Positions 1,865 through 33,088 of a stretch of DNA of 43,280 bases are shown here, piece by piece. The DNA lies in the NCBI GenBank assembly GCA_016180865.1, contig JACPAJ010000012.1, positions 1 through 43,280 on the forward strand, in the 5' to 3' direction. Both the position numbers and the translations under genes were made by a program. This stretch comes from Deltaproteobacteria bacterium. GTDB lineage: Bacteria; UBA10199; GCA-002796325; 1-14-0-20-49-13. Every line of letters begins with the position of its first letter. Position 1 is the stretch's first letter. Below the pieces are notes generated by a model, which worked only from the letters and a program-made list of their open reading frames with translations, made no database searches and was not told the DNA's origin.

Positions 1865-1889
1865 GCCCGCCAACGGTTAAGTGGCGGGC
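1865..1889 (-). repeat. GC-rich hairpin GCCCGCCA-N9-TGGCGGGC in the 5' leader of the peptidase gene
   Basis: 8-bp perfect stem with a 9-nt loop. Its reverse complement differs by 1 nt from the hairpin at 28100..28124. Confidence 0.8.
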
Positions 1890-5896: not shown

Positions 5897-5938
5897 TTGC
5901 TATCGTATAATATTTAGCCAAAAAAATCAACTAAATAG

Positions 5939-7192: not shown

Positions 7193-7208
7193 GTTAGTTC
7201 TCCTTTTG

Positions 7209-8438: not shown

Positions 8439-8461
8439 TTTGTTCTCCTCCCTCATTTTTT

Positions 8462-8482
8462 ATCACTAGTCACTAATCACTG
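8462..8482. repeat. Tandem heptamer repeat ATCACTA-GTCACTA-ATCACTG in the ftsQ-ftsA spacer
   Basis: Three consecutive 7-nt units read directly from the sequence. A GGCGCA...TGCGCC hairpin follows at 8491..8517. Confidence 0.7.
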
Positions 8483-8562
8483 TCTTTTACGGCGCACCTC
8501 CCGGCGGCCACTGCGCCTTCTGTAAGCGCACAACTTTCCTTTTTTCACCGGGCATTTTGACG

Positions 8563-9339: not shown

Positions 9340-9346
9340 ATTGTTT

Positions 9347-11625: not shown

Positions 11626-11630
11626 AAGCT

Positions 11631-13852: not shown

Positions 13853-13857
13853 ACGAG

Positions 13858-15084: not shown

Positions 15085-15104
15085 CTCCCCATCTCCCCAT
15101 CTTG

Positions 15105-16184: not shown

Positions 16185-16187
16185 TGT

Positions 16188-17624: not shown

Positions 17625-17627
17625 AAT

Positions 17628-19145: not shown

Positions 19146-19156
19146 TTTATCGTCTT

Positions 19157-21157
19157 CTATTCAAGCTGTTTAAAACTCACCCGAAAAGTTTCTCCCTCTT
19201 TAATCATGCTGCCTGGCGAAGGAATCTGGCTTACCGCAACGCCCGATCCCGCGATATCCAGCTTTATATTTGCCTGCCCCACAGACGCCATAACATCCCG
19301 GATCGTCACTCCCCTCACATCCGGCACCTGAAAATTGTTCTCATTAATTTTTTGAAATCGCCTGACTTCGGCATGTCCCGCCGTTATATCCCCGCGGCCG
19401 TCTTTTCCGGAGGCGACTACTTTTGAAAGCGGAGATGGAATATCCATGTGCTTCAAAGTCGCTTCCGTTATTTCGCGGAATGCCGGCGCGGAAACAACGC
19501 CGCCAAAATGAACCCCCGACGGCTCATCCAGCCCCACAAAGACTGCAATTTTAGGATCATTCGAAGGCGCAATTCCTACAAACGATGCGTAATATTTTCC
19601 GGCAACATAATGCCCCGCTCCTTCGACGACTTTTTGGGCAGTGCCTGTTTTGCCGGCAACCGGATATTCTTTGCTTGCGGCCCTTGTGCCTGTTCCGCCC
19701 TGGCCCACAACGCGTTCCAGCATGCCTATCATTGTTGAAGCATTAGCGCTGCTGATCGGCTCGGAAACCAAAGTAGGTTCGGCATTATAAATCAGCATTC
19801 CCTGATTATTGACGGTATGATCCACAACATAAGGTTTCAGCCGTTTTCCGCCGTTTGCGATAGAAGCAAACGCCGTCGCCATTTGAACGGGCGTAACGCT
19901 TATTCCCTGTCCGAACGCAATCGTTGCAAGTTCAACCGGCTGCCATGTTGAAGCGTCTCTGACTATTCCGCCAATTTCACCGGGATAATCTATTCCGGTT
20001 TTTGAGCCTATGCCGAATTTTTTAAGATATTCATATAATCTTTCTCTGCCTACTTCGCGGGCAATTTTTGCGGCGCCGATATTGCTTGAAACTCTGATAA
20101 TATCTTTAACGGAAAGTTTTCCATAAGAATCGTGGTCGTGGAGCACAGCTTTTCCGACGGTCATCGCCCCGTTTTCGCAATCAAAAATCTCTTCCGGCGT
20201 CACAACTCCGGCATCCAGAGCCGAAGCGACGATTAAAACTTTGAATGTCGAACCGGGCTCGATTGTGTCGGTTACAGCCCTGTTTCTCCACATATCCTGC
20301 TTGTATTTTGAATATTCGTTTGCATCGAACGTCGGCATGTTGGACATAGCCAGAACTTCTCCGGTTTCGATATCCAGCACGACCGCCGAGCCGCCTTTAG
20401 CGCCTGCCGATTCGACCGCTTTCTGAAGCGCATTTTCGGCCGCAAACTGAATCTGCTTGTCGATTGTAAGATAAACATCGTTTACATCATCCTGCTCTTC
20501 ATATGCGACCGGCGATATATAAAATTTTCCGCGGGCATCGCGCCTGTAAACAGCTTCTTTTTTATGGCTTTCGAGGAATTTATCGGCAGCAAGCTCTATG
20601 CCAGCAAGAGCTTCGGATTCCATTCCGACCGCGCCAAGGAGATGGCTGGCGAGGGAGCCGTTGGGATAAAATCTTCTGCTCTCTTCAATGGAATAGATTC
20701 CACGCATTCCTTTAACGGCCTCCAACACCTCACGATCGACAAATCTTTTCAGCCAGACGAATTTTTTCGGGGATTTTAATTTTTCCGACAGTTCTTTTTC
20801 ATTCAATCCAAGGACATCGGCCAATTTTTTTATCTCCTCTTCGCTCAGCGAAACGCTCCTCGGATCCGCATATATTGACGGCACGGGAAGGCTTATTGCA
20901 AGCTCATCGCCGTTCCTGTCTAAAATACGGCCCCTCCTTGAACTCTGCGGTATTTTTGCCTGATATTGTTTGGAAGCAACCCACCCAAGCGCCGTATTTT
21001 TAATGCAGTGCAGTTCCAGCGCTCTGCCGATAACAATCAAAAAACCGATTCCAACGGCTATAACCACAATCTGAAGCCTGAGCTTTATCCGCGTTTCGCG
21101 CCGAAGCTCTTCGCTGAGCTGCGACTTGATCTTTCTTATGTTCAATCCTTGTCTCAT
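19157..21157 (-). CDS. ftsI: Division-specific class B penicillin-binding protein (FtsI) with a C-terminal PASTA-like domain
   Basis: N-terminal TM segment, dimerisation domain, transpeptidase motifs (STFK, KTGT). The last ~60 aa (VPDVRGVTIRDV...SQIPSPGSMIKEGETFRVSF) look like a PASTA domain. Confidence 0.9.
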   Translation of the reverse strand: MRQGLNIRKIKSQLSEELRRETRIKLRLQIVVIAVGIGFLIVIGRALELHCIKNTALGWVASKQYQAKIPQSSRRGRILDRNGDELAISLPVPSIYADPRSVSLSEEEIKKLADVLGLNEKELSEKLKSPKKFVWLKRFVDREVLEAVKGMRGIYSIEESRRFYPNGSLASHLLGAVGMESEALAGIELAADKFLESHKKEAVYRRDARGKFYISPVAYEEQDDVNDVYLTIDKQIQFAAENALQKAVESAGAKGGSAVVLDIETGEVLAMSNMPTFDANEYSKYKQDMWRNRAVTDTIEPGSTFKVLIVASALDAGVVTPEEIFDCENGAMTVGKAVLHDHDSYGKLSVKDIIRVSSNIGAAKIAREVGRERLYEYLKKFGIGSKTGIDYPGEIGGIVRDASTWQPVELATIAFGQGISVTPVQMATAFASIANGGKRLKPYVVDHTVNNQGMLIYNAEPTLVSEPISSANASTMIGMLERVVGQGGTGTRAASKEYPVAGKTGTAQKVVEGAGHYVAGKYYASFVGIAPSNDPKIAVFVGLDEPSGVHFGGVVSAPAFREITEATLKHMDIPSPLSKVVASGKDGRGDITAGHAEVRRFQKINENNFQVPDVRGVTIRDVMASVGQANIKLDIAGSGVAVSQIPSPGSMIKEGETFRVSFKQLE

Positions 21158-21170
21158 ATATTTAAAAAGC

Positions 21171-21530
21171 CTAGGGCTTAATAAGCACTATCTGGTCGCT
21201 GGCGGGCGGCTGCATCGAAAGTTTCGTTTTTGCAATATTTTCAAGCCGCGCGGGCGATTTCAGTTTTGCAATTTCAATCTCCAGCATGGAAGCCTGTTTT
21301 CCAAGCTCATCGGTTGTCCGCTTTAAAGCCGATGTTTCATAGCCAAGCTGCACAACCTGCACGCGCGACCAGACATAAAAAAGAGCCAGCGCAGTTATAA
21401 AAAGAAGCCAGAGCACCCACCTCTTCACGAATTTATTCTGCACCGCGGTTGCCTTTGCTCCGACGCCCTGTTTTTGCAGCAGCCTGTGCGCAGGCGAATA
21501 ATTTATATAGTCTGCGGAAATTTGAGACAT
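21171..21530 (-). CDS. ftsL: Cell division protein FtsL
   Basis: Small bitopic protein with a coiled-coil segment, between rsmH and ftsI. The start is uncertain because it overlaps the rsmH end by 28 nt. Confidence 0.75.
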   Translation of the reverse strand: MSQISADYINYSPAHRLLQKQGVGAKATAVQNKFVKRWVLWLLFITALALFYVWSRVQVVQLGYETSALKRTTDELGKQASMLEIEIAKLKSPARLENIAKTKLSMQPPASDQIVLIKP

Positions 21531-22399
21531 ATAGCCCTTAATTTAGCGCTGCGCGCTCTTGGGTTGTTTTTTGTTTCTTCCTCGGCCGGCGGAACCGGCT
21601 TTTTTGTTAAAATCTCTGCTTTGCCGCCGGCTGAAAATTCCTTGAATCTGTTTTTAACCAGCCTGTCTTCAAGCGAATGATAGCTTACAATCACAACCCG
21701 CCCTCCGATTTTTAAACACTCGGGAGCATCGCAGAGGAATTGCTCCAAATTATCAAGCTCCCCGTTTACGGCTATTCTCAGCGCCTGAAACACGCGCGTT
21801 GCAGGATGGGTTTTTGAATGACGCAAACCTTGCGGATAAGCTTTGTAGCAGATATTCTCTAATTCTTCCGTTGTTGTGATTGCCTTCATCCCCCGTTGCC
21901 CGACAATTTTTTCAGCTACCCTTCCGGCAAATTTTTCTTCGCCGAATTTCAAAAAAACTTCCTTCAGCTCATCTTTAGAATAAGCATTAACAATATATTC
22001 CGCCGTAAGGCCGGAATTTTTATCCATTCTCATATCCAAAGGGCCGTTTTTCATAAAACTGAAACCCCGCTCGCCGGTATCAATCTGCATGCTGGAAATT
22101 CCAAGATCCAGAACGATCCCGTCAAAAAGAATTCCCCATTCTTTGGACATCGCGGCAATTTCAGCGTAGCTTTTTCGTTCGATTTTTATTCTTTCTTTGA
22201 AAGCCGAAAGCCGCGCGCGCGATTCGTTCAGCGCCTCATCATCAATATCGATTCCGATGACTTTTCCATCCGGAGCGGATGCCTCAAGAATTTTTTCGGC
22301 GTATCCTCCGGCCCCGAGCGTGCCATCAAGATAAATTTTTCCGGATGCAGGCGCCAGATATTCGATCACTTCTTTTAAAAGAACGGGAATATGCTTCAT
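21503..22399 (-). CDS. rsmH: 16S rRNA (cytosine1402-N4)-methyltransferase
   Basis: HIPVLLKEV N-terminus and SAM-binding motifs, second gene of the dcw cluster. Confidence 0.93.
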   Translation of the reverse strand: MKHIPVLLKEVIEYLAPASGKIYLDGTLGAGGYAEKILEASAPDGKVIGIDIDDEALNESRARLSAFKERIKIERKSYAEIAAMSKEWGILFDGIVLDLGISSMQIDTGERGFSFMKNGPLDMRMDKNSGLTAEYIVNAYSKDELKEVFLKFGEEKFAGRVAEKIVGQRGMKAITTTEELENICYKAYPQGLRHSKTHPATRVFQALRIAVNGELDNLEQFLCDAPECLKIGGRVVIVSYHSLEDRLVKNRFKEFSAGGKAEILTKKPVPPAEEETKNNPRARSAKLRAICLKFPQTI

Positions 22400-22402
22400 C
22401 TT

Positions 22403-22843
22403 CTAAAGTCCTAAATCCGCAAGTTTATCTCCCATCAGCTCCAGTTTCTTTTGCGATTGTTCAAAAGACTGCTGCCATCTTTCGCGCGACCAGATTTCAA
22501 TCCGCATCGTCATGCCGACAAGCACCACGTCTTTGGTAATGCCCGCATATTCGCGAAGCGTAATTGGGATCTGAATCCGGCCGCTTTTATCCACCGGAGC
22601 TTCGCAAGCCGCGGAGATAAAAACGCGCTGAAGAGCTTTTACTTCGTCTTTAAATTGAGGGAGAGACGCAACCTTATTTTCCACCTTCTGCCATTCTGCG
22701 GCAGGATATGCCCAGAGGCAGTTGTCAAAATTAGTGATAATTAATCTTTCATCGTAGCTCGTCGACAAAATTTCGCGGAATTTGGATGGAATAGAAAGCC
22801 GGCCTTTTGAATCTATCGCATGCTCAAATCTACCCCTAAACAT
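22403..22843 (-). CDS. mraZ: Transcriptional regulator MraZ
   Basis: MFRGRFEHAIDSKGRLSIP with duplicated SpoVT/AbrB-like halves. Start set at ATG 22843, which is preceded by GGAGG. Confidence 0.92.
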   Translation of the reverse strand: MFRGRFEHAIDSKGRLSIPSKFREILSTSYDERLIITNFDNCLWAYPAAEWQKVENKVASLPQFKDEVKALQRVFISAACEAPVDKSGRIQIPITLREYAGITKDVVLVGMTMRIEIWSRERWQQSFEQSQKKLELMGDKLADLGL

Positions 22844-22905
22844 GTTAACCTCCATCGCCTTCAAACCCGCTTCAGACTTGAAAAATCGTTGATTTTCAAT
22901 CGGTT

Positions 22906-22942
22906 ACACTTTATTACCTTCTATGCCACTTTATGCCACTTT
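22906..22942 (-). promoter_or_regulatory. Putative MraZ operator: phased AAAGTG(G/T) direct repeats
   Basis: On the minus strand, AAAGTGG occurs at 22942..22936 and 22932..22926, and AAAGTGT at 22912..22906. A degenerate unit lies between them. Spacing is 10 and 20 nt, 63-99 nt upstream of mraZ, and a TTGACC lies just upstream at 22953..22958. Confidence 0.6.
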
Positions 22943-23188
22943 ACGGCACCATGGTCAAGACTTTTTCGGTCTAAAGTCTTGAAAAAACTCATTTTTTTGC
23001 ATTTTTTGCTTTTAAAAATTGCGAAAAAATCCGCTTAAAAATTGGGCTGCTAGTTAAAACAATTAAACTTCTTATTAGACATAGCTTATAACTAGCTGAA
23101 AAATAAAGCAGTGCGTTTGGGACATATAACACTTAAAAATTACGTTTGCCTTTTGCATATTCTTCTGGTTAATTGAGGGCAGTTAGTC

Positions 23189-23276
23189 GGAGAGATGGCC
23201 GAGTGGCTTAAGGCGCCCGCTTGGAAAGCGTGTGTACCGCAAGGTACCGTGGGTTCGACTCCCACTCTCTCCGCCA
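23189..23276 (+). tRNA. tRNA-Ser (anticodon GGA), type II with long variable arm, CCA encoded
   Basis: Hand-folded cloverleaf: acceptor GGAGAGA/TCTCTCC, 3-bp D stem, anticodon loop TTGGAAA, variable arm GTACC-GCAA-GGTAC, T arm GTGGG-TTCGACT-CCCAC. One C-U mismatch in the anticodon stem. Confidence 0.9.
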
Positions 23277-23281
23277 ACCAA

Positions 23282-24294
23282 GGGGTCAAGTATTGACTTT
23301 TCACTTTTGATTTGTTAGAAACATGTCATGTCGCGCCCTCTTCGCATTCAATATGCTGGAGCTGTTTATCATGTTATGAACCGTGGAAATGCCCGTCAGG
23401 ATATTTTCGGGCACACAAATCACTACCAATTATTCATTCGTTGCATGTCAGAAATGATCAATTTATGGGAATTAAAATTGCATGCGTTCAGCCTAATGCC
23501 CAACCATTATCATCTATTGATCGAAACGCCCATGGGCAACTTGTCGCGAGCCATGCGGCACTTGAACCATGTGTACACTCAACGCTTTAACCGATTAACA
23601 GGTCGCGATGGCCATCTGTTCAGAGGTCGATATAAATCTATTCTTATAGAGGAAGACGCTTATTTGATAGAATTGTTGCGCTATATTCATCTTAATCCGG
23701 TAAGAGCAGGTATGACAAAAAGACCGGAGCAGCACAGATGGACGTCACACCATTATTATCTTAAAGGGACTGAAACAGGCTTTCTAACGACCACACGCCT
23801 TCTCGAATATTTTGGAAGACGAAGGAATTTGGCGCGAAGGAAATTGCATGAGTTTGTCATGTCCGGTGTGCCGATAGAATTGGAAAAACGTTTATCCGGT
23901 CAGAAATGGCCGTCGGTTTTAAGTAGTGCAAATTTTGAAGAATGGGTCCATTGGAATTTTGTGAAGGATTTGGATGATGAACAGTTGGAATACGTTCCGA
24001 ATCATAATCAGCAAGTTGCAGAAGAATCTCTGCAAAAGATTCTTTGTAAGATATTCGAAACGAATTGGCCATCCCTAAAGAAGCCTCAAGGACACGAACA
24101 ACAAAAGAGGCGTGCCCAAGCAATATGGTTTTATAGGCGTTATTTAAAACTGGGATATAATGAGCTCTCAAAAATATTTGGGCTTGTGCCATCAAGGATA
24201 TCTAAGATCATGAGCAAAAATGACATGGTGTCATCGGAACTCAATGAACAAGTAGTGCTATCCTTGAAAAAGTGAAAAGTCAATACTTGACCCC
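23282..24294 (+). mobile_element. IS200/RAYT-like unit: Y1 transposase gene bounded by perfect 27-bp inverted repeats
   Basis: GGGGTCAAGTATTGACTTTTCACTTTT at 23282..23308 is the exact reverse complement of 24268..24294. Each arm contains a GTCAA-GTA-TTGAC mini-hairpin. The left arm starts 6 nt after the tRNA CCA end. Confidence 0.8.
23328..24275 (+). CDS. HUH/Y1 (IS200-like, REP-associated tyrosine transposase-like) protein with a C-terminal DnaA domain IV-like HTH
   Basis: HUH motif NHYHLLI, catalytic Tyr context LRYIHLNPVRAG, and a C-terminus (RRAQAIWFYRRYLKLGYNELSKIFG...SRISKIMSK) resembling the DnaA C-terminal HTH. Confidence 0.85.
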   Translation: MSRPLRIQYAGAVYHVMNRGNARQDIFGHTNHYQLFIRCMSEMINLWELKLHAFSLMPNHYHLLIETPMGNLSRAMRHLNHVYTQRFNRLTGRDGHLFRGRYKSILIEEDAYLIELLRYIHLNPVRAGMTKRPEQHRWTSHHYYLKGTETGFLTTTRLLEYFGRRRNLARRKLHEFVMSGVPIELEKRLSGQKWPSVLSSANFEEWVHWNFVKDLDDEQLEYVPNHNQQVAEESLQKILCKIFETNWPSLKKPQGHEQQKRRAQAIWFYRRYLKLGYNELSKIFGLVPSRISKIMSKNDMVSSELNEQVVLSLKK

Positions 24295-24414
24295 TATTCC
24301 TATTACCCCTATTCAAATCCTTTTGCCACCGCAAGAAAGGCCGATGGTTCATCGCCACCCGCTTTTTTATAAAATTCCAACGCACTAGCAAGATCAAGAA
24401 CTGCGCGGCCCAAT

Positions 24415-24999
24415 TTATTTTCCTTTTTTTGTGCCATACAACACCCCCATAAAATATGACCATGAGTTTGAATTGCCGGCAAGGAAAATCGGCTCGTAGT
24501 CTATTCCCAGAAGAAACCATGCCGGCGCAACATCTAAGTTTACAAAATCGACTTCACGCGGAAGCTTGTCCACCTCCTCATCAACAGTTCGTTTTAATTT
24601 AAGGAATGCTTCTCCGGTTAAGGCGCGCCCTCCCCTTGTTATGCACAAATCCCAGTCAGAATATTTACGATTATTCCCCTTGGCGCGCGATCCCAAAAGT
24701 CCAACGGCAATTTCCAAGTCAACTGAACAGAGTTTTTTAACGACCGGAATAATTTCTTCAATATCGTCCGTCTTTTGAGCAGAAAAAGGAGATAAAATAG
24801 ATAAAGGATCAATCTGAAGGGTATCGCAAATAACGTAATACGTCTCCGAAAATGGGCCTCCATTTCCTTTGAGATAATTATTTATAGTTGACCTATTAAA
24901 CCCGTGCGCTTTGGCAAACTCCGTAACGTGCGCATATCCCCTTTGGGTTATGATCTGCTTCAGTTTTGCGGCATCAATATGATATCTCATTAACTGCAT
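24415..24999 (-). CDS. XRE-type HTH fused to a minimal nucleotidyltransferase (MNT-like) domain
   Basis: N-terminus has the HTH (YAHVTEFAKAHGFNRSTINNYLKG). The C-terminus has GSRAKGNNRKYSDWDL (GS-x10-DxD) and a later VDFVNLD acidic motif. Confidence 0.8.
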   Translation of the reverse strand: MQLMRYHIDAAKLKQIITQRGYAHVTEFAKAHGFNRSTINNYLKGNGGPFSETYYVICDTLQIDPLSILSPFSAQKTDDIEEIIPVVKKLCSVDLEIAVGLLGSRAKGNNRKYSDWDLCITRGGRALTGEAFLKLKRTVDEEVDKLPREVDFVNLDVAPAWFLLGIDYEPIFLAGNSNSWSYFMGVLYGTKKGK

Positions 25000-25026
25000 T
25001 ATATCCCAAATCGCGAGCCTATGTCA

Positions 25027-25056
25027 ATTATTTTATATATATGTATATTATTTTAT
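25027..25056. promoter_or_regulatory. Direct repeat ATTATTTTAT-N10-ATTATTTTAT in the divergent promoter region
   Basis: Identical 10-mers at 25027..25036 and 25047..25056, 20 nt start to start, between the HTH-NTase gene and the 281-aa ORF. Candidate operator. TTGACT-N16-TATAGC further downstream could drive the plus-strand gene. Confidence 0.35.
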
Positions 25057-25156
25057 GCACACACTTAATAAACGTTATCAGGCACCTTTTATAAAATAAC
25101 TTGACTTATTCGACGCCTGCAATATAGCTAGCGCCGTCCTTAGAAAGGAGTTTAAA

Positions 25157-26002
25157 ATGGCAAATCCAATAGGTGTCCGCAAGATAGTAATACACGATGA
25201 AAAGGGAGCATCTCGTACATATGAAGTTCCAGTGGAACTTAGCACAGATCCAGCAATTTCCTTTCTTGATACAGCCAAACCAATTGGCGTTCTAGATGAA
25301 TCCGATGCTCCTAAAGATATTCTTTGGCATTTGGTCGGCTATGTTGGCAATAGAATGTTTGCGATAGAACAAAACCGCGAGATGGTGCGGAAAATTGATG
25401 AGTTAAATGCAGAATTAGAACCGTTGATGAATCGCGTGGCGATGGTTCATCTTCTTGCCAAGAAGGTTGACACAAATGACAAATCTAACCGTGGCCTCTT
25501 TGTTGATTATGACGATAGCGACCATCTCTCTGGCCACGTTCTCTACCATGTGTCGGACCAAAACATAGATAGATTTATAAAACTTGCTGGGGCTGATGGA
25601 AAATTAATAGAGACCGAGGTGCCTGTGTATGACCAGTCCAATGGTAACGCTCTTAGTTACACGTGGTCATATAAGACAGGCTCCCAGCTAGAAAAAGATC
25701 TTAATTTGATGAAAGTGAAAATGGCTGCCTTCTTTTCACAATATGGATGGGATGGTTCACTTGAAAGAATAACGCCGCCTTCGGATAAAGTAGATATCGC
25801 AACATTGCCGCAGTTACGCCGTCTGCGTGATCTGTGGAACCCGATTGCAACTTATATTAATGAAGAGCCTTATTATGGAATATACGGTAAGCCATCAGTA
25901 GGAATTCTGGTCATGCAGTTTGATAGCCCTGCACCAATTGTTGATTTGGATGGCGGTGCGGTTCACAAGCGGACAGAGTCAGACTTTTCTCTTCTTAACT
26001 AA
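25157..26002 (+). CDS. Hypothetical protein, 281 aa, no recognisable motif
   Basis: Long ORF with AAAGGAG 8 nt upstream of the ATG, followed by a strong palindrome. I recognise no family. Confidence 0.7.
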   Translation: MANPIGVRKIVIHDEKGASRTYEVPVELSTDPAISFLDTAKPIGVLDESDAPKDILWHLVGYVGNRMFAIEQNREMVRKIDELNAELEPLMNRVAMVHLLAKKVDTNDKSNRGLFVDYDDSDHLSGHVLYHVSDQNIDRFIKLAGADGKLIETEVPVYDQSNGNALSYTWSYKTGSQLEKDLNLMKVKMAAFFSQYGWDGSLERITPPSDKVDIATLPQLRRLRDLWNPIATYINEEPYYGIYGKPSVGILVMQFDSPAPIVDLDGGAVHKRTESDFSLLN

Positions 26003-26021
26003 GTGTCAGACACTTAGTTAA
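25995..26021. terminator. Perfect 27-nt palindrome (13-bp arms) overlapping the stop codon of the 281-aa ORF
   Basis: TTAACTAAGTGTC-A-GACACTTAGTTAA followed by a T-rich stretch. It is either a terminator or a protein-binding palindrome. Confidence 0.55.
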
Positions 26022-26039
26022 TCTTGCATGTTTTTCTTT

Positions 26040-26070
26040 CTGGACAAAATCGCGTAACTCGTTATATTTA
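26040..26070 (+). promoter_or_regulatory. Promoter/operator-like module, copy C (TGGACA-N16-TATATT)
   Basis: 27 of 31 nt identical to the first 31 nt of copy B. Contains TAAC-NN-GTTA between the -35 and -10 hexamers. Lies 47 nt upstream of the HEPN start. Confidence 0.6.
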
Positions 26071-26116
26071 CAAAATAAAGAGGGTTTGTGTGGGCTCTCA
26101 TCGGAGACCAATATCT

Positions 26117-26518
26117 ATGAAACTCGATTTTAGTTCCCTGAAAAAGGCCATCAAAAGCCTGGGCAAGGCCATTGCCAGAACGCAAAAAGAGCCGTTGGAC
26201 GAGGAGTTGCGTGACGCTGTTATTCAGCGTTTTGAATACACTTATGAACTCGCTTGTAAAATGATGAAGCGTCAAATAGAGCAAGAATCCCCGAATCCAT
26301 CCGGAATTGACCAGCTGTCATTCAAAGATCTGCTTCGAACGGTGGCCGAAAAAGGAATTATTACGGACGTTGAGGCATGGCTAGTTTATAGAGACCAGAG
26401 AAATATCACCTCGCATACTGATGACGAGGCCGAGGCCAAAAGCGTTTATGAAACAGCTTTAAAGTTTCATAAAGATGCAGAGGCCTTGTTCTCAAATCTA
26501 GAGAAACGCAAATCATGA
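26117..26518 (+). CDS. HEPN-domain protein, HI0074-type nucleotidyltransferase substrate-binding family (putative toxin)
   Basis: RNITSH matches the Rx4H HEPN motif and the architecture is HI0074-like. Start placed at ATG 26117 (MKLDFSS). The track start at 26024 would run through the promoter module. Confidence 0.85.
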   Translation: MKLDFSSLKKAIKSLGKAIARTQKEPLDEELRDAVIQRFEYTYELACKMMKRQIEQESPNPSGIDQLSFKDLLRTVAEKGIITDVEAWLVYRDQRNITSHTDDEAEAKSVYETALKFHKDAEALFSNLEKRKS

Positions 26519-26844
26519 TCGATATTCCTCATAAACACTTAGAAACAATTATAGCCATCCTCTCAAAATACGTACCCGAACATGAAGTCTGGGCATTTGG
26601 TTCACGGGTTAATCAAAAACCAAAAAAATATGCCGATCTCGACATTGCGATCAAAACCAGCGCCCCGTTACCGGCAGGAACTCTCGCCCTTTTGCGCGAT
26701 GCCTTTTCGGAATCGAACCTGCCATTTAAAGTTGACGTTGTCGACTGGTCAAAAATCAGCAAAGATTTTCAAAAAATCATTGAGGAAAAATTTGAAGTTG
26801 TTCAAGGTAACAAAAGCGTATCTGTGAAAAGGGGGTCAAAATGA
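26515..26844 (+). CDS. Minimal nucleotidyltransferase (MNT, HI0073-type; putative antitoxin)
   Basis: GSRVNQKPKKYADLDI (GS-x10-DxD). ATGA start/stop overlap with the HEPN gene. Confidence 0.88.
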   Translation: MIDIPHKHLETIIAILSKYVPEHEVWAFGSRVNQKPKKYADLDIAIKTSAPLPAGTLALLRDAFSESNLPFKVDVVDWSKISKDFQKIIEEKFEVVQGNKSVSVKRGSK

Positions 26845-27161
26845 AATTAGGCATCATCCTTGAAACAAAGGAATATGAAAAGGCTTGGAACGCATTCAGA
26901 TTTGCAACGGCTTCAAAGAAAGCCGGCCATGAAGTAAAAATCTTTTTAATGGGCGAGGCTGTCGAATGTGAAAATATTACCCACGAAAAATTTGACGTTG
27001 CGGGACAATTGAAGATTTTCGTCGAATCCGGAGGAACAATCCTTGCTTGCGGCACCTGTCTTAAATCCCGCACGATGAAAGCTACCGAGGTTTGCCCTAT
27101 GTCAATGATGATTGACTGCGTAAAAATGGTTGAATGGGCGGATAGAGTGATAAGTTTTTGA
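26841..27161 (+). CDS. DsrE/DsrF-like sulfur-relay family protein
   Basis: 106 aa with an MKLGIIL... Rossmann-like start and the ACGTCLKSR motif typical of the DsrE family. ATGA overlap with the MNT gene. Confidence 0.7.
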   Translation: MKLGIILETKEYEKAWNAFRFATASKKAGHEVKIFLMGEAVECENITHEKFDVAGQLKIFVESGGTILACGTCLKSRTMKATEVCPMSMMIDCVKMVEWADRVISF

Positions 27162-27175
27162 GCCGTAATCGTCTT

Positions 27176-27210
27176 GGGCTTTTTAGCCCGCCACTAAGGC
27201 GTCGACCGGC
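27176..27210 (+). repeat. Decayed copy of the GCCCGCCACTAA hairpin element
   Basis: GCCCGCCACTAA at 27186..27197 is identical to 28100..28111, but the 3' arm is degraded (CGACCGGC versus TGGCGGGC). It is preceded by a GGGCT-TTTT-AGCCC mini-hairpin. Confidence 0.5.
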
Positions 27211-27217
27211 ACAAATT

Positions 27218-28045
27218 ATGACTAAGATTTCAGAGACAGCTTTTCTTGTAAATTATTTGCGCTCCAAGAATAAAGAATTGAGCGGAGATATTTACTCTGA
27301 CCTTTGGATTGAAGAGACAACATCTGAACTAGCTGAAGAGTTTCAAAGAGAGATAAACCCGCTAGAGTCATACCAATTAAGCCTCCGTCATCGTTTCTTT
27401 TTAGAGTGGGTAAAAAAAGCTATCGCTCAAGGAGTTGAGCGAGTAATCAATGTAGGTGCTGGATTCTCAACTTATACTCATTTGGTCGAGCCACCAATTC
27501 CGACCTGTGATGTTGATTATCAGCATATCGTTGCTTACAAAGCGCAGAAGCTAAAGGAGTTCGAAACAAAGAAGTTAATTCCACATCGTGAAATCGTATT
27601 TCTACCTACCGATTTAAATAATTCCAAGAGCCTCGATAAAATGAAGGAGCAACTTAAGAAATGGGTCATAACAGAAAAATCTTTGGCGATATTGGAAGGT
27701 ATCACCTACTATCTTAATAAACAGCAACTGGATAGAGTTTTTAATGTTCTCTCTAAAATTCAATCTAAAGGTAGTTTAATAGCCGTCCTTTATTGGAAAC
27801 CAGATGCAATAGATAATTCAGTTTTTAAAAAATGGATTCCCTTTGCCAAGAAAAACTATAGTTATGATCCCACCGGCTATACATATCTAACAAAGGGTTA
27901 TTTTGAAGAGTTAGATGGCTATCATATCGTGGACTTTGCAACCTACTTTGATCTTGAAAAGAGGTTTGCTAAGAACAATCGTATTAGGAAAAACAACGAT
28001 AACGTATTTCCCGAAGACTTTGTTGTATTGGAGAAAGTTAGATAA
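27218..28045 (+). CDS. Class I SAM-dependent methyltransferase, LCMT/TcmP-like
   Basis: ISETAFLVNYLRS N-terminus, VINVGAGFSTY SAM motif, CDVDYQHIV and LAILEGITYYL blocks typical of the leucine carboxyl methyltransferase-like family. ATG 27218 preferred over TTG 27158. Confidence 0.8.
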   Translation: MTKISETAFLVNYLRSKNKELSGDIYSDLWIEETTSELAEEFQREINPLESYQLSLRHRFFLEWVKKAIAQGVERVINVGAGFSTYTHLVEPPIPTCDVDYQHIVAYKAQKLKEFETKKLIPHREIVFLPTDLNNSKSLDKMKEQLKKWVITEKSLAILEGITYYLNKQQLDRVFNVLSKIQSKGSLIAVLYWKPDAIDNSVFKKWIPFAKKNYSYDPTGYTYLTKGYFEELDGYHIVDFATYFDLEKRFAKNNRIRKNNDNVFPEDFVVLEKVR

Positions 28046-28053
28046 TCTTTTAC

Positions 28054-28104
28054 TGGACAAACTTGTGTAACTGGTCATATTTAGGCTGGATTTAGCTTGC
28101 CCGC
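28054..28104 (+). promoter_or_regulatory. Promoter/operator-like module, copy A (TGGACA-N16-CATATT)
   Basis: 47 of 51 nt identical to copy B at 29988..30038. Confidence 0.6.
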
Positions 28105-28143
28105 CACTAAACCGTTGGCGGGCGATTCGCCTTTGGCGAATCG
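28100..28143 (+). repeat. Two adjacent perfect hairpins (GCCCGCCA-N9-TGGCGGGC and GATTCGCC-TTT-GGCGAATC)
   Basis: 8-bp stems read directly from the sequence. The first is the same element as 1865..1889. They abut the tRNA fragment. Confidence 0.8.
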
Positions 28144-28183
28144 GAGGGGTGTCTGAGCGGCTTAAAGAGCTGGTCTTGAAAAT
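28144..28183 (+). pseudogene. 5' half of a tRNA-Ser(UGA), ending in the anticodon loop
   Basis: 30 of 40 nt identical to the 5' half of the tRNA at 30544. The last 11 nt, GGTCTTGAAAA, are identical. The D stem carries compensatory changes (TCT/AGA versus ACC/GGT). No 3' half follows. Confidence 0.8.
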
Positions 28184-28380
28184 CTTTTAGGGGGTATTTA
28201 AAAAGGTGAAGGATATCAACAATAACCAAGCAATAACAAAAACTAAGCCCACTTTTCGATTACTGTAAACTACCGCCCTTTACTGGGGATTATTTTTAAA
28301 AATATTTAAAAAAATAAGATACATCCTACGGTGAAAAACTCTTGATGTGTTTAATATTAAGAGATAGCTGTAAATGGAAA

Positions 28381-29157
28381 ATGTTACGATTTGTTTACAT
28401 ATTTGTAATAAGCTCCTTTCTCTTACCGTTAAACGTTCAAGCCGATGACTTTTGGAGTTTAAAAAATATAAATGCTACAAAGCAAGGCATTAAAAACATA
28501 TCACAAACTGTTCATAGATGCTCCGTTGGCCTAAATGGATATTTCAAGAATAAACCTGAACACCTTGTAATCATAACCTATGGAGATAGAGATTCTTTCG
28601 TCAAAGGCTTAGTAAGCGAATTAGGCTTTTCCGTTCAGACAGCAGAATATTTTAGAAAAAGTAGTGCCCCTAGACCTATAAATGGTAAAATGTTGGTACC
28701 TCCAGACCAGCTTTTAGAAAATGTCTGTCATGAAGTAGTACATTACTATTTAGAAAGTACTACGAATAGGGATAATTTATTAAAAGCAAAATGGTTTGAC
28801 GAGGGCACAGCTTCATATCTTGCGGCAATTATCGTCAAGCCAGAATCTATTGATGAAATAATAAAATACTTTAAGAAAACATATGGAAATAATTTTATCC
28901 CTCTTTCAAAAATAGAAACGGAACATGATTGGCATCAATTACATCAAAACATGGAGAGTAGAAACAAAGCATATCTGCAAGCAATGACACAGATGAAATA
29001 TTTCTTTGATAACTATTCGGTATCCCAGTTTAATGAGATTTTGAGTCTTATGAATACTTCAACTTTTAATCAGGCATTTAAAATGATTACAGGTTTGTCG
29101 TCAAAGAAGTTTTATCGCAACTGGATAAAGTGGATGTCTAAAACGGAGAATATATGA
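28381..29157 (+). CDS. Secreted peptidase MA-like (gluzincin) protein
   Basis: Signal peptide MLRFVYIFVISSFLLPLNVQA. HEVVHYYL...WFDEGTASYL matches the HExxH...EG-x-A-x-Y layout of the peptidase_MA_2 type. Upstream TTG/ATG starts at 28342/28345 are possible. Confidence 0.75.
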   Translation: MLRFVYIFVISSFLLPLNVQADDFWSLKNINATKQGIKNISQTVHRCSVGLNGYFKNKPEHLVIITYGDRDSFVKGLVSELGFSVQTAEYFRKSSAPRPINGKMLVPPDQLLENVCHEVVHYYLESTTNRDNLLKAKWFDEGTASYLAAIIVKPESIDEIIKYFKKTYGNNFIPLSKIETEHDWHQLHQNMESRNKAYLQAMTQMKYFFDNYSVSQFNEILSLMNTSTFNQAFKMITGLSSKKFYRNWIKWMSKTENI

Positions 29158-29966
29158 ATCAAAAGAACAATAACACCGATTATCTTAAAAAGCTTGAGAC
29201 TGCTACAGGCGATTTGAAACAGATGAGCGATAAACTATTTGATATGGCTCTCCATCTTGCACTTACTGGAAAGTGGAACAATTGGGAAGAATCAATGCCT
29301 ATCGGTACTACCACTACATTTAATGAAGAAATGCTATTCAAAACAGGTGATGAGTTTATATCAAATTTAACCCGTTTGAGAATGGACTTGCTTAGCGAAG
29401 TTGACCGAATAAAATCCTACTTGGGCAATCAGAAAAAATCGCTACCAATAACAAAACCTTTATTAACAGGCCACAAAACAATAGATAAAGCCACCGGTGG
29501 CTTGAAATGTGGAGATGTCATAGCTTTAGCGGGGGCATCAAATAAAGAAACCGCCTTGAAAGTGATTACGAAGGTAGCTTTACAGGATAAAGTAAACTGT
29601 GGGATATTTTCGCTGGAGAAAAATAAGGAAAAGCTAGTTAAACAGATGCTAAGTATTGGTTCTAAAGTCGGTCTAAATAAAATTACAGGAGGTAGAATAG
29701 CATCTAATGATTGGCCTAAACTAGATAATGCCGCTGACAAGCTATCTACGTCTCCAATCTATATCAAAGACAATATTTCATCTGAACGAGAAATGTCAGA
29801 TTCTACCAGTAAGGCTAAAATAAAACTGGGGCTAATAATGGTGAAAGCTCATAACAAATCTATTCCTGTCAAATCCCTTAAAAACATCGCAACTAATTTG
29901 CAGATACCGATTATAGTAACAACAAAAAAGCCCGTGCATGATTTCGACACGGTAATAAATGTGTAG
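29154..29966 (+). CDS. DnaB C-terminal-domain-like protein with degenerate Walker A and Walker B motifs
   Basis: GHKTIDKATGGLKCGDVIALAGASNKETAL aligns with DnaB G-x-TGF-x-LD-x-T-x-GL-x-GDLII-x-ARPSMGKTAF, with GKT replaced by KET. The Walker B position reads LIMVKAHNK instead of LIVIDYLQL. ATGA overlap with the peptidase gene. Confidence 0.7.
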   Translation: MNQKNNNTDYLKKLETATGDLKQMSDKLFDMALHLALTGKWNNWEESMPIGTTTTFNEEMLFKTGDEFISNLTRLRMDLLSEVDRIKSYLGNQKKSLPITKPLLTGHKTIDKATGGLKCGDVIALAGASNKETALKVITKVALQDKVNCGIFSLEKNKEKLVKQMLSIGSKVGLNKITGGRIASNDWPKLDNAADKLSTSPIYIKDNISSEREMSDSTSKAKIKLGLIMVKAHNKSIPVKSLKNIATNLQIPIIVTTKKPVHDFDTVINV

Positions 29967-29987
29967 AAAACTTCAATCGTTTTATCG

Positions 29988-30038
29988 CTGGACAAACTTG
30001 TGTAACTGGTTATATTTAAGCCGGATTTAGTTTGCCCG
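29988..30038 (+). promoter_or_regulatory. Promoter/operator-like module, copy B (TGGACA-N16-TATATT)
   Basis: See copies A and C. The TAAC-TG-GTTA palindrome overlaps the -10. Lies 20 nt upstream of the lipoprotein start, with AAGAGGA as the SD. Confidence 0.6.
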
Positions 30039-30057
30039 TCTCTAAGAGGAAATTATT

Positions 30058-30534
30058 ATGGATCATAGAACCCTGATTTTGGTGGTGATGTTATTTGCAG
30101 TGCTTGCAGGATGCAGTCAATCTGAAAATATAACAGGTAAGGATAACCTGAGTTTGGCTAAGTCATCTTGCATTAGCAATTATGGCAGGTGGGATGAAAA
30201 GGCAGAGAGCTGTATTAGTGCCCCAACTAATGAATCTGATTGCAATAAGGAAGAAGGAGTTTGGCATAACGCCAATACCGAAAAAGGAATCGAAAAAAGC
30301 CTTCCATCCAAAATTACCCAATCATATTGTGAATTACCTGCAACGGATACAGGCAAAACATGCAAAGACAAATCAGAATGTGACAAATATTGTAAACCAA
30401 TATGCACAAATGGCGCTGAAGATTGTGCTTTGAATGAAATGAATAAGGAATATGGTGAATGCGCTAAATTTTTCGATTTATATGGCGGATATTCATGGAA
30501 CGACGGAGAAGTTGTGGAATGGCGAACATATTAA
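30058..30534 (+). CDS. Cysteine-rich lipoprotein, unknown function
   Basis: Lipobox LAGC after a hydrophobic signal. The mature part has many Cys residues. Good SD. Confidence 0.75.
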
Positions 30535-30543
30535 TTTTTCCTT

Positions 30544-30628
30544 GGAGAGGTGACCGAGTGGTTGATGGTGCCGGTCTTGAAAACCGGTGTGCAGAAATGT
30601 ACCGGGGGTTCAAATCCCTCCCTCTCCG
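30544..30628 (+). tRNA. tRNA-Ser (anticodon UGA), type II, no encoded CCA
   Basis: Acceptor GGAGAGG/CCTCTCC, D stem ACC/GGT, anticodon stem CCGGT/ACCGG with loop CTTGAAA, long variable arm, T loop TTCAAAT. Confidence 0.9.
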
Positions 30629-32991
30629 TTTGCTCCTGAAGGGGGTGAACGGAGGGGCTCCTGATTTGCTCCTGTGCTTAGGAAATGCGCGCCTTCGACT
30701 TTGGAACCATTGGAAGAATAGTTAACGTTTATCCTGCCATCGTCTTCTATATATAATTCGCTGGCGACGTCGACTGGAGGCGCAATTACTTCCGCCTTTT
30801 TCCCGATTTCATCGCACCATTGCCGGATCTTATCTGCAAGCTCATGGCCTGTGCTGCAGCCCAGAAGTATAATTCTTCCTCCGTCTTTCACCTTATTTAA
30901 GTACGTCTTGATTTCTTCATCGCTCACGTCAATTTTCGAGAGCTCATTATCATAACTTTCGCTGAGCGCAAAATCTTTTGCAGAGCCATGCCCTCCAAGA
31001 ACAAGAGCATCTACCGAATTATCGTCTTCTTTCGCCAAGGCTTCATATAACTCCGTTTCACTGTATGGCTCGGCAATCTCCAAGTTATATTTTTCAATAA
31101 TTTTATCGACGCCTTGCGCCGCAAATGCGCCGTTATGATCGTGTCCGGGCAAAGAAACGAAAGCACGAGGTTGATCATACACAGGATTTTTTATCTTTTT
31201 TACGATATCTTTATTGTATCTGCTCCAGTGAGATACTTTTTTATCATCCAGCCATTCGCAATCGGCTGCTGCTTCCGCCAAAGTTATTTTCCCGTCGAAA
31301 AATCCGGAATTATAAGCATACCCGAATAATTCAACTATGCGGTAATATCTGAATTTATTAACAACCTCCGGCCAAAGCGGATCGTTTTTCAACAGCGCTA
31401 GCTTATTATCATCAAGCAATTTAAAACCTGACATCGCTTTTGACAGATAACATTTATTAAAATACATAATATCCAAAAACATGCCCATTTCATCCCCGTT
31501 TTGGTAAACATCAAGTCTTGACGCAAAACTCATTAAATCTTCCAAATAATACGACTTGTTTCTGCCGTAAACCCCCATAAAACCGTTCACGGTATCAATG
31601 ATAAGATCATCCTTGATTTTATAATCTCTCATTCTCTTGATGCAGGAGTTAATCGAGCGAAGGCTTGGAAACCCGAGCGAAATAATGTCGGCGAATCTCT
31701 CTTTTGCTTCAGAAGAAACATTCATTTCTTTTAATTGGCCAAAAAGTTCTTTTAGCTCTCCTTCGGAGAAATCATATTTATAAGATGACGCTTGCACAGC
31801 CCAGCAAAGTCTCTTATCTTCAGGAACAATACCTTCTGCCACTTCAAACGCTCTCGGTATAACATTAAAATTTTTCCCACTGAAAAAACACACTTTAATA
31901 ATTCTTCGAAGTTGTTCTTTATCTTTGGAAATATTTTTCAGCCATTTTACATTATCAGCAAACGTCGAAAATGGAAAACCAGCGTAAGAATCGCCAACAT
32001 CCCCTGCTGCTAAATATTTTTTTAAATCCGCAACGGGATCCAGTTCGGCCAGCATCAATCCCTCCGCAACCTTTGGGATTGAATCTATTATTTGACCGGC
32101 CGCAAAATATCGCGAGGCGGATTTTATTATTATCTTGATATCTTCTTCTCCAACACCCCTCTCTCTTAAATATCTGACTGCTGATTCTAACCTGCCATCG
32201 AATATGCAAAGGCCGTTAAGATGCTCTCTTTTTTCCTCCAGTGCAGCTCTTACAAATGAAGCTAATTCAAAACTGTCGAAAAGCTTTAGCCCGGCATTTA
32301 TAGAAATCATGTCTTCCGCATATTTCAAAGCAAAAGGATCTCTTTTGATTATCTCTTTTATTTCGGCATCGGTCAGCCCCAAACCGGAATATGCGCCGAT
32401 GGCGCCTTGCAAATGCCCGGCTAATACGGTCACAGAAAAAGGGCCTTCGACGATTATCGATTTTAAGAATCCTTTCTTTTCGTCTTCGGAATTAAACTTC
32501 AATTTGCCAAGAGCTTCATAAGCCTTGGTTATCATTCCTCCTTCACCAGCACGGTATGCATAATAACCCGCTCCATCAACGATTTGAGATTCAGAGAGGC
32601 CGATAAGACCAAACTCCGGAACCCGTTCAGCTATCGGCTTCAGATAGTTTTTTATCCCCTCATCATAATTCGACTCCTCCCTATTAACGATAAACCCTGA
32701 AAGGAGAAAAAGTTTTTCATAAGGGTCGGCGATAGAACACTTTTCCAGCTCTGCATTGAACCTGCTAAGTAGATTTTTGGAAAATATCTTTGAAACAGCA
32801 CGCTCTTCCAAAGGAGAGTTTTTGAAGCTAAGATATTCTTCAAGCGTAATAATTTTATCCCCGTTCGCATCCGCCAAAGAAATATCCGATTTCCCATCGG
32901 CATGCTGGAGCTCCGCCTCATCAATCCTAAAATCCTCATTAGAATCAACCGGTTGGAAGCTTTTCAGTATCTCTCTGATATACGTAGTCAT
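30610..32991 (-). CDS. Large (793 aa) multidomain protein: N-terminal EF-hand-like loop, C-terminal His/Cys module (caspase/CHAT- or DUF4347-like)
   Basis: [12 protein letters not shown] fits most EF-hand loop positions. The C-terminus has ALVLGGHGS ... [14 protein letters not shown], the beta-strand-His ... beta-strand-Cys layout of caspase-fold/CHAT-like domains. The last 19 nt overlap the tRNA-Ser gene on the opposite strand. Confidence 0.7.
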
Positions 32992-33088
32992 AGCTTATTA
33001 TTATTATCGGCTGGTTGTATACCGTAAGTTGCTAATATTAATAACTTTCCAATTGAAAACCGGCCTGAATCTGGTAGCAGCTATATCT

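Follow-up and report, generated by a model that had tools for sequence, protein, structure and literature searches.

The window analysed here is a stretch of 43,280 nucleotides from a Deltaproteobacteria bacterium (contig JACPAJ010000012.1 of assembly GCA_016180865.1). It contains an interval of short accessory genes, bracketed by two serine tRNA genes and carrying a short module in three copies. A reading of the letters alone (the sequence-only reading) had proposed that these genes form an integron-like cassette array, put together at the modules in an undescribed way. Every junction that we could map lies inside tRNA-Ser sequence, and the module has the features of a predicted promoter; the interval is therefore not a new kind of cassette array. 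It is probably a composite, decayed genomic island in a tRNA gene, and what appeared to be a cassette array without integrase turns into a readable history of tRNA-gene integration. The main evidence comes from an empty site in a sister species and from a displaced tRNA half within the island.

An accessory island between two serine tRNA genes

The interval is bounded by tRNA-Ser(GGA) on the left (23189–23276, plus strand, 54.5 bits) and by tRNA-Ser(UGA) on the right (30544–30629, plus strand, 58.9 bits; the start is placed at 30543 or 30544). Both genes were found by ARAGORN and Rfam, which reported no further tRNA and no other Rfam family. CCA is encoded only in the GGA gene of the window. 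The island measures 7.35 kb and has a GC content of 0.35–0.41: 0.411 at 23277–28142 and 0.353 at 28183–30542, as compared with 0.477 in the dcw cluster. The GC content of third codon positions (GC3) is 0.31–0.46 within the interval and 0.45–0.53 in the core genes. The clusters formed at 90% identity around the island proteins had no members beyond this strain. The composition, together with the absence of the interval as a unit from the sister species, bears out the earlier description of about 7.3 kb of non-core, AT-rich DNA and supports a genuine accessory island of foreign appearance.

The gene content given by the sequence-only reading was upheld by Pfam, NCBIfam and PADLOC. From left to right the island encodes a REP-associated tyrosine transposase (RAYT), a nucleotidyltransferase with a helix-turn-helix (HTH) domain, a 281-aa protein, a HEPN-MNT-DsrE-methyltransferase operon, an HExxH protein (the peptidase) paired with a DnaB-like protein, and a lipoprotein. 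All genes lie on the plus strand except the HTH-nucleotidyltransferase gene (24415–24990), as had been stated. An integrase, of the integron type or any other, was found neither in the island nor in the 43-kb window when the open reading frames (ORFs) of the island were searched with Pfam, NCBIfam and PADLOC and the remaining large ORFs of the window with Pfam. The non-coding gaps of the island sum to less than 0.9 kb and are too short to hide an integrase. PADLOC recognized no known defence system among the island proteins, giving only weak MNT-type matches.

The organism of the window is represented by one 43-kb contig, and its relatives are few and all derived from metagenomes. Five runs yielded nine Logan contigs, all collinear with window positions 22183–34389 at 99.9% identity or more. 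Contig L019 of a metagenome-assembled genome (MAG; GCA_016183165.1) is 99.3% identical and collinear over 20621–24616. These nine contigs and L019, a thin sampling of relatives, showed no presence/absence variation at the modules. Two other routes to relatives were tried. MraZ relatives in JGI metagenomes (L002–L007, at most 70% identity) had no tRNA and no synteny upstream of mraZ and were too distant to be used, and a scan of genome contigs with the 793-aa protein encoded to the right of the island as anchor returned no relatives.

The empty site in a sister species

A sister species is represented by two contigs of one assembly (JGI 3300038439), L020 and L001. L020 is 82–84% identical to window positions 5145–23273, across the whole dcw cluster. 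In the sister the order is mraZ, a single tRNA-Ser(GGA), a terminator and u775, and the island is missing. On the 5′ side of its tRNA, L020 is homologous to the flank of the window GGA gene. The final 83 nt of L020 are homologous to 30630–30657 of the window, a terminator-like hairpin (plus strand) that lies immediately 3′ of tRNA-Ser(UGA) and marks the right flank of core DNA. The end of L020 overlaps the end of L001 by 88 identical nucleotides, and L001 continues into u775, an ADP-forming acetyl-CoA synthetase gene and a permease gene. The product of u775 is a homologue of the 793-aa protein.

Comparison of the sister tRNA with the two window genes revealed a change of similarity along the molecule. 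From the anticodon loop to the variable arm the sister tRNA matches the window GGA gene at 27 of 28 positions and the UGA gene at 20 of 28. In the T-arm and the 3′ strand of the acceptor stem the order is reversed (21/25 for GGA, 23/25 for UGA), and the 3′ flank has 4 of 35 positions in common with the flank of the GGA gene and 25 of 35, ungapped, with that of the UGA gene. The switch falls inside the T-loop: of the variable bases there, the first is shared by the sister with the GGA gene and the second with the UGA gene. The body of the ancestral tRNA is thus shown to have passed to the left GGA gene, and its T-arm half, 3′ end and terminator to the right UGA gene. The comparison likewise shows that the whole 7.35 kb is one presence/absence unit with its ends in the T-loop/3′-end region of tRNA-Ser sequence. 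No gain or loss junction was mapped at a module. An imperfect direct repeat of 25 nt, consisting of the T-arm and the acceptor 3′ strand, is present in the left tRNA (23249–23273) and in the right one (30604–30628), both on the plus strand and identical at 20 of the 25 positions. It is a candidate for the crossover region, at the T-loop or the 3′ end.

In the history that we propose, incoming DNA with its own promoter-driven tRNA-Ser(UGA) would first have undergone recombination, probably in a site-specific, integrase-type reaction, with the tRNA-Ser(GGA) already in place; the crossover would have been at the T-loop or 3′ end. As the partners would have been two tRNA-Ser genes, both products would have stayed complete tRNA genes. 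If this is correct, recombination between two complete tRNA-Ser genes has produced hybrid tRNAs with different anticodons at the two ends of the island.

The same comparison can be read in the opposite direction: the island and both tRNA-Ser genes would be ancestral, and the sister would have deleted the interval between the T-arm/3′ regions, retaining a hybrid tRNA-Ser(GGA). We regard such a deletion as unlikely, though as the most serious of the alternatives. It agrees with the sister tRNA, which is exactly the expected hybrid of a GGA-type body with a UGA-type 3′ part and flank; it needs the same number of compensatory changes as insertion; and the sister contigs break at this very spot. 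It does not agree with the GC and GC3 of the interval, clearly below those of the core, nor with the lack of 90%-identity relatives of the island proteins outside the strain. It also implies the loss of tRNA-Ser(UGA), which is usually essential unless a second copy exists. The low GC content, the missing relatives and the normally essential tRNA are the reasons why insertion is favoured for the outer event. The identical runs shared by the two tRNAs are at most 7 nt long, too short for RecA-type recombination, so a deletion would still need a site-specific enzyme. The deletion concerns only the direction of this first step and is otherwise compatible with the insertion history proposed here.

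A displaced tRNA half and a probably nested block

Repeat search and sliding identity, compared with shuffled sequence, detected a second trace of tRNA-Ser(UGA) inside the island. A 40-nt segment (28143–28182, plus strand) shares 30 of its 40 positions with the intact tRNA-Ser(UGA), whereas 200 shuffles of the window gave at most 25. It begins at tRNA position 1, contains the 5′ strand of the acceptor stem, the D-arm, the 5′ strand of the anticodon stem and the anticodon loop (CTTGAAA, anticodon TGA), and ends 1 nt past that loop. Its last 11 nt (GGTCTTGAAAA) are identical to 30573–30583. In the D-stem, two pairs carry compensatory changes relative to the intact gene (ACC:GGT to TCT:AGA), and these changes indicate that the half diverged as a working tRNA, not by decay. 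The segment is thus the displaced 5′ half of a diverged tRNA-Ser(UGA). The distance to the intact gene, which is downstream on the same strand, is 2,401 nt. The window contains no other 5′ or 3′ fragment of either tRNA-Ser. The half had escaped the sequence-only reading, and neither ARAGORN nor Rfam reported it, the latter even at a permissive threshold around 28143, because only half of the gene is present. Half-tRNA remnants of this kind escape such programs, yet they decide how the locus is interpreted.

The DNA between the edge of this half and the corresponding point of the intact gene (28183–30583, plus strand) will be called block B. It is 2.4 kb long and has the lowest GC content of the region (0.353; GC3 0.31–0.35). 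Block B consists of an AT-rich non-coding arm of 200 nt, the genes of the HExxH protein and the dead DnaB_C-like protein, module copy 3 and the lipoprotein gene, together with the 5′ half of the intact tRNA-Ser(UGA). Block B is probably a nested insertion of 2.4 kb. The island is accordingly supported as internally composite, with at least one sub-block (28183–30583) that carries its own integration scar.

As a second step of the proposed history, block B would have inserted later into tRNA-Ser(UGA) through a crossover in the anticodon loop. It would have supplied a replacement promoter (module copy 3), the lipoprotein gene and a new tRNA 5′ half, and pushed the old promoter (copy 2) and the old 5′ half upstream.

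The promoter-tRNA region might instead have been duplicated locally as a segment and then have decayed, with no integration at the anticodon loop; this would also account for the presence of two promoters (58 nt, 90% identity) and two tRNA 5′ halves (40 nt, 75% identity) in the same order and orientation. This explanation is very improbable. The stem changes in the displaced half are compensated, the half is far more diverged than the promoter next to it, and the anticodon loop has its edge at the very place of the break. The DNA in between has the lowest GC content of the region, and the contig L017, described below, has the same promoter and 5′ half followed by unrelated cargo.

The repeated module resembles a promoter

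The cores of the three module copies are at 26040–26070, 28053–28083 and 29988–30018; all are on the plus strand, about 2 kb apart. Copy 1 (26030–26070) consists of a T-rich tract and CTGGACAAA-N7-AACTCGTTATATTTA, which reads as TGGACA-16-TATATT. Copy 2 with its leader (28043–28098) is GGCTGGATTTAGCTT, and its −10 hexamer reads CATATT. Copy 3 with its leader extends over 29978–30045; no other promoter is predicted ahead of the intact tRNA-Ser(UGA). Over a length of 58 nt (28053–28110 and 29988–30045), copies 2 and 3 have 90% identity. Copy 1 shares only the 31-nt core with them, at 84–87% identity (BLAST E value within the window 0.003–0.004).

In all three copies 9–10 of the 12 positions of the sigma-70 consensus are matched by TGGACA-16-TATATT, and the copies are the best plus-strand sigma-70 matches in the island. 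Each has a T-rich tract on its 5′ side and faces the downstream gene. From the end of the −10 element to the start codon there are 49 nt for copy 1 (HEPN gene) and 42 nt for copy 3 (the ATG of the lipoprotein gene), and in both cases a GGAG or GAGG motif precedes the start codon by about 9–10 nt. In copy 2 the distance from the −10 end to the tRNA 5′ half is about 62 nt; copy 2 is the only predicted promoter ahead of the peptidase/DnaB-like pair. Readings of the module as a sigma-54, extracytoplasmic-function (ECF) sigma, LexA-box or attC-like core site were rejected by eye, as spacing or motifs did not fit. Sigma-70 is the only reading backed by the promoter scan.

The consensus fold of the four known copies (the fourth is in L017) has a free energy of −0.03 kcal/mol and no covarying pairs; the module is therefore not an attC-like structured site. 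In this respect the sequence-only reading, which had noted that the repeats do not look like attC, was right. Its statement that the modules separate the gene groups holds at three boundaries and fails at three others: tRNA/RAYT, RAYT/HTH-nucleotidyltransferase and HTH-nucleotidyltransferase/281-aa gene.

A search for further copies with a hidden Markov model of the module gave none, either in the remaining 36 kb of the window or in 25 kb of sister-species sequence. Exact-pattern scans of genome and metagenome contigs gave no matches with a pattern that was too strict, as it fixed two positions that differ in L017; this negative result is weak evidence. A relaxed pattern gave a single match in viral contigs (L018), which lies in a collagen-like repeat gene of a large virus and was discarded as due to chance.

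In the integron-like reading, single cassettes would have been captured one after another at the 31–51-nt module by a recombinase encoded elsewhere. We consider this highly unlikely. The module matches a sigma-70 promoter facing the downstream gene in every copy, shows no conserved hairpin or covariation, and is found at just 3 of about 6 boundaries. All junctions that were mapped fall within tRNA sequence, the sole presence/absence difference found removes the whole island at the tRNAs, and no variation was seen at the modules in the contigs from five runs and one MAG. On the other side, the gene groups are short and co-oriented and include a toxin-antitoxin pair, the three module copies point the same way at about 2-kb spacing, the module recurs in an unrelated accessory (defence-type) region of L017, and the module core contains a small palindrome, TAAC-NN-GTTA.

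The module in a second organism

A fourth module copy was found in the Logan contig L017, which had been retrieved for its DnaB-like homologue P0005 and not for the module. A model built from the window copies alone detected it at 3131–3184 with an E value of 5.8e-8 (78% identity over 54 nt). It is upstream of a GIY-YIG gene, whose called ATG is 53 nt past the −10 element. The leader is followed by a relic of a tRNA-Ser 5′ half that is most like the fragment in the window; its local alignment score of 32 was reached by none of 300 shuffles. Module, leader and relic are collinear with window copy 2 once the hairpins at 28099–28142 are removed. The neighbourhood in L017 is of the defence type (SIR2_2, GIY-YIG, DpnII-type restriction-modification). 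The sequence-only reading had named two outcomes that would speak against it: the same gene order in relatives with no variation at the modules, and a module that is an ordinary promoter duplicated only at this locus. The outcome was mixed. No presence/absence variation was seen at the modules, but the module, promoter-like as it is, also occurs outside this locus, in L017.

The hairpins in question are two. The first is a REP-like hairpin, GCCCGCCA-N9-TGGCGGGC, at 28099–28123 (plus strand), with another copy outside the island at 1865–1889 (minus strand); the second, GATTCGCC-TTT-GGCGAATC, is at 28124–28142. L017 lacks them at the same register, and the 44 nt at 28099–28142 therefore appear to have been inserted into the tRNA leader of module copy 2.

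Three of the four known module copies (copy 2, copy 3 and that of L017) are thus located 5′ of the 5′ part of a tRNA-Ser(UGA). Copy 2 leads to the tRNA fragment, copy 3 to the lipoprotein gene and then the intact tRNA, and the L017 copy to the tRNA relic. Directly after copy 3 no significant tRNA relic was found. The association partly shows that the module is the predicted sigma-70 promoter, with leader, of tRNA-Ser(UGA).

Alternatively, the module copies may have spread independently of the tRNA history, either as a reused 'mobile promoter' or as the target of one regulator that binds the conserved spacer (AACTnGTnA) and co-regulates three operons. In all four copies the spacer positions beside the −10 element are invariant. 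Copies 2 and 3 satisfy the published definition of a putative mobile promoter (PMC3575422), and copy 1 has no tRNA relic. The location of three of four copies 5′ of a tRNA-Ser(UGA) 5′ part, with copy 2 and the L017 copy in the same register, argues against this explanation. A tie to tRNA is unexpected for a self-moving promoter, even if the tRNA part of copy 3 is beyond the lipoprotein gene. Nor are there further copies in the remaining 36 kb of the window or the 25 kb of the sister. Taken together, we judge an independent spread of the module to be improbable.

A proposed history of insertions and the points against it

The tRNA-gene reading also explains the arrangement of the modules. As a third element of the proposed history, each insertion that replaces a tRNA 5′ half would leave one more module copy behind. 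With one promoter left behind per insertion, the copies would share one orientation, be spaced by about 2 kb and stand at the 5′ edges of the cargo groups. Today they would drive the HEPN-MNT-DsrE-methyltransferase operon, the peptidase/DnaB-like pair, and the lipoprotein gene with the tRNA. Copy 1 could be an older displaced copy that has lost its tRNA part or, equally speculatively, the product of a simple promoter duplication. Finally, the integrase or integrases would have been lost or would be encoded elsewhere. An insertion in which the 5′ half of a tRNA gene is replaced has to bring a promoter with it, and would thereby seed promoter copies in front of cargo genes; this is a possible route for 'promoter reuse'.

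Several points weigh against this history. The integrase is absent, the definition used by Islander applies only in part, and the mechanism is read from scars only. The T-arm argument depends on few sites (2 versus 4 differences in 25 nt), and a crossover at the very 3′ end of the tRNA is equally possible. The empty site is known from metagenome contigs, among which only L020 reaches from mraZ across the tRNA into the right flank (83 nt); the remaining linkage relies on the 88-nt overlap of L020 and L001. Either direction, insertion or deletion, needs two compensatory changes on the 5′ side (positions 7 and 62). A lipoprotein gene between promoter and tRNA is unusual, and no tRNA relic is detectable after module copy 1 (p about 0.24). 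Lastly, the 90% likeness between the replacement promoter and the displaced one is explained only by assuming that the elements or their hosts were related.

A more far-reaching possibility, which we put forward as a doubtful one, is a family of integrase-less elements of about 2 kb that insert at the anticodon loop of tRNA-Ser(UGA), use an integrase in trans and stack into a cassette-like array of accessory operons, each headed by a promoter. The attachment site of such mini-elements would be the conserved promoter plus the tRNA 5′ half, and their cargo a toxin-antitoxin pair, a peptidase with a dead helicase and, in L017, GIY-YIG; these details of the model are just as doubtful. If such mini-elements were mobile in trans, they would constitute a functional analogue of the integron based on a tRNA gene.

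Comparison with known systems

Islander catalogues genomic islands in tRNA genes. Among its 3919 islands 159 leave a 5′ fragment, and 2083 have anticodon-centred sites (PMC4383910). Islander accepts a 5′ fragment if it is upstream of its tRNA gene and has the same orientation, and the filters of the program discard matches inside full-length tRNA genes (PMC4383910). The present island has the typical elements: an intact tRNA, a co-oriented cognate end fragment, foreign DNA of low GC content between the two, and a target tRNA that is regenerated by the inserted DNA in a nested or tandem structure. The inner crossover is in the anticodon loop and the outer one in the T-loop/3′ end, in line with the Islander sublocations, and for the whole island a relative with an empty site is available (L020 plus L001). 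Block B (2.4 kb) and the whole island (7.35 kb) both fall within the length range of 2–200 kb and have a foreign composition.

The differences are as follows. The tyrosine integrase that Islander asks for is missing from this island. The units are very small (2.4 kb and about 5 kb). At the outer boundary the 'displaced 3′ fragment' is fused to the 5′ portion of the incoming tRNA-Ser(UGA), so that both ends are complete tRNAs with different anticodons. The regenerated 5′ part brings a conserved promoter and, in block B, also a lipoprotein gene between promoter and tRNA. The locus is best called a degenerate, or possibly trans-mobilised, island of the tRNA-gene kind in the rarer 5′-fragment configuration. 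Current island finders filter out islands whose displaced fragment has become part of a second complete tRNA gene, and the number of such islands may be underestimated.

With integron and CALIN arrays the island shares short co-oriented accessory genes, toxin-antitoxin genes among them, and a short repeat between some of the groups. CALIN arrays also occur without a nearby integrase. In contrast to integrons, there is no IntI with attI beside the array, and no tyrosine recombinase in the 43-kb window. In place of attC sites at the 3′ ends of cassettes there is an unfolded, promoter-like repeat at 5′ ends, in three copies only. Cassette-wise variation was not seen among the few relatives sampled.

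Putative mobile promoters (PMPs) were defined by at least 80% identity over at least 50 nt upstream of non-paralogous genes (Matus-Garcia, Nijveen and van Passel 2012, PMC3575422). Module copies 2 and 3 are within these limits (90%, 58 nt), whereas copy 1 (31 nt) and the L017 copy (78%, 54 nt) fall short. The occurrence of a related copy in a different organism is another likeness. Unlike the case of PMPs, the route of copying is visible here: the promoter was dragged along with tRNA 5′ halves and apparently did not move by itself.

Genes and repeats of the island

The RAYT unit (23281–24295, plus strand) consists of a gene for a Y1 (IS200-like) REP-associated tyrosine transposase (23328–24275) between inverted repeats. 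The protein matches PF01797 (Y1_Tnp, 1.9e-12) and scores 78.2 bits with the NCBIfam equivalog NF047646, for which the cutoff is 80 bits. The flanking repeats, which had also been missed by the sequence-only reading, are perfect over 28 nt (23281–23308 and 24268–24295), and each contains a GTCAA-GTA-TTGAC hairpin; no extra copy was found in the 43-kb window. The Y1_Tnp domain, the inverted flanking repeats with hairpins and the apparently single copy are as in known RAYT/REP systems. A C-terminal extension of about 190 aa, the score just under the cutoff and the lack of further copies of the flanking repeat in the 43 kb set the unit apart. The other REP-like hairpin of the window (GCCCGCCA...) is unrelated in sequence to the RAYT flanking repeat. 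The RAYT unit and the REP-like hairpins are probably separate, ordinary small mobile or repeat elements.

The HTH (Cro/C1-type) plus MntA-like nucleotidyltransferase gene (24415–24990, minus strand; Pfam, NCBIfam) is called as 191 aa in contig L010. A match to all 12 positions of the sigma-70 consensus (TTGACA-18-TATAAT) on the minus strand, at 25027–24998, abuts its start codon; this predicted promoter therefore suggests a leaderless mRNA. Tandem 17-nt repeats, TATGT(C/A)(A/T)ATTATTTTAT, at 25020–25056 may be the operator of the gene. The next gene (25157–26002, plus strand) encodes the 281-aa protein, which has no family match and whose 90% cluster is limited to this strain. A hairpin with a 9-bp stem (25999–26017) is found at the 3′ side of this gene.

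The HEPN-MNT-DsrE-methyltransferase operon (26117–28045, plus strand; Pfam, NCBIfam) follows module copy 1. Its first three genes, HEPN (NTase_sub_bind, 26117–26518), MNT (26515–26844; the MntA model scores under its cutoff) and DsrE-like (26841–27161), are on the plus strand and have stop-to-start overlaps. A degenerate REP-like hairpin (27186–27210) precedes the gene of the LCM-family methyltransferase (27218–28045, plus strand), whose ORF opens at 27158 and whose GC3 is lower (0.35). Overlapping genes of NTase_sub_bind (HEPN) and a minimal nucleotidyltransferase are known from HEPN/MNT systems (HI0074/HI0073-type, type VII). The operon differs from these in that HEPN comes first, that DsrE-like and LCM-type methyltransferase genes are in the predicted co-transcript, and in the MntA score under the cutoff.

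The genes of the HExxH protein (28381–29157) and the DnaB_C-only protein (29154–29966), both on the plus strand, were assigned by Pfam and NCBIfam. The latter is a dead DnaB-like protein: its Walker A motif has a deletion of three residues, and Walker B and the C-terminal third are missing. Among 5.8 billion proteins searched the family has two members, the sole close relative being P0005 (L017, 1230–2075), with 64% identity and the same defects. That the two proteins are 64% identical in spite of shared defects suggests a conserved non-ATPase role. The lipoprotein gene (30058–30534, plus strand) encodes a signal peptide with a LAGC lipobox and is an orphan, with no homologues among the same 5.8 billion proteins. 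It sits between module copy 3 and tRNA-Ser(UGA), with 8–9 nt from its stop codon to the tRNA.

The flanks and other features of the window

The right-hand neighbour of the island is the gene of the 793-aa orphan and not PBP1A, as had been assumed; PBP1A is at 39947–42259. The 793-aa ORF of the window passes through the hairpin and shares 20 nt with the 3′ end of tRNA-Ser(UGA). The single relative of the gene (73% identity) is at the same position in the sister species, and the gene is therefore lineage-conserved rather than strain-specific. The sister contig L001 has about 240 extra nucleotides between the terminator and the stop codon of u775 (6363–6690). They include a stretch like a tRNA T-arm and CCA end, TGGGTTCGATTACGAGAGGCCA, which may be another old integration scar.

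On the left side, the 5′ half of tRNA-Ser(GGA) and 25–45 nt upstream of it are non-homologous between the window (23165–23221) and L020 (reverse strand, about 135–215). The tRNA 5′ halves themselves are identical at 21 of 32 positions. This hints at a further 5′-half swap at a tRNA-Ser(GGA) hotspot. Upstream of mraZ, at 22916–22950, there are three repeats at 10-nt spacing, GCCACTTTA(T/C), which on the mraZ strand read AAAGTGGC. The repeats are kept in the sister (L020, about 440–475) and look like the MraZ operator.

A further tRNA-associated relic was seen in L017, where a minus-strand tRNA-Met is followed, after about 220 nt, by a relic of its own 3′ half (29/38 identity; 714–756 and 977–1049).

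Two genes of low GC content and no Pfam match were noted outside the island: that of the 793-aa orphan, at 30610–32991 (GC 0.41), and another at 38222–39883 (GC 0.39). In murF (16188–17624, minus strand) a palindrome at 17339–17430 has 45-nt arms that are 80% complementary; compared with the sister MurF it corresponds to an insertion of seven residues in a repeated TSD motif. A direct repeat of 96 nt (36784–36879 and 37036–37131, 86% identity) within a 485-aa HTH_8-containing gene indicates an internal domain duplication.

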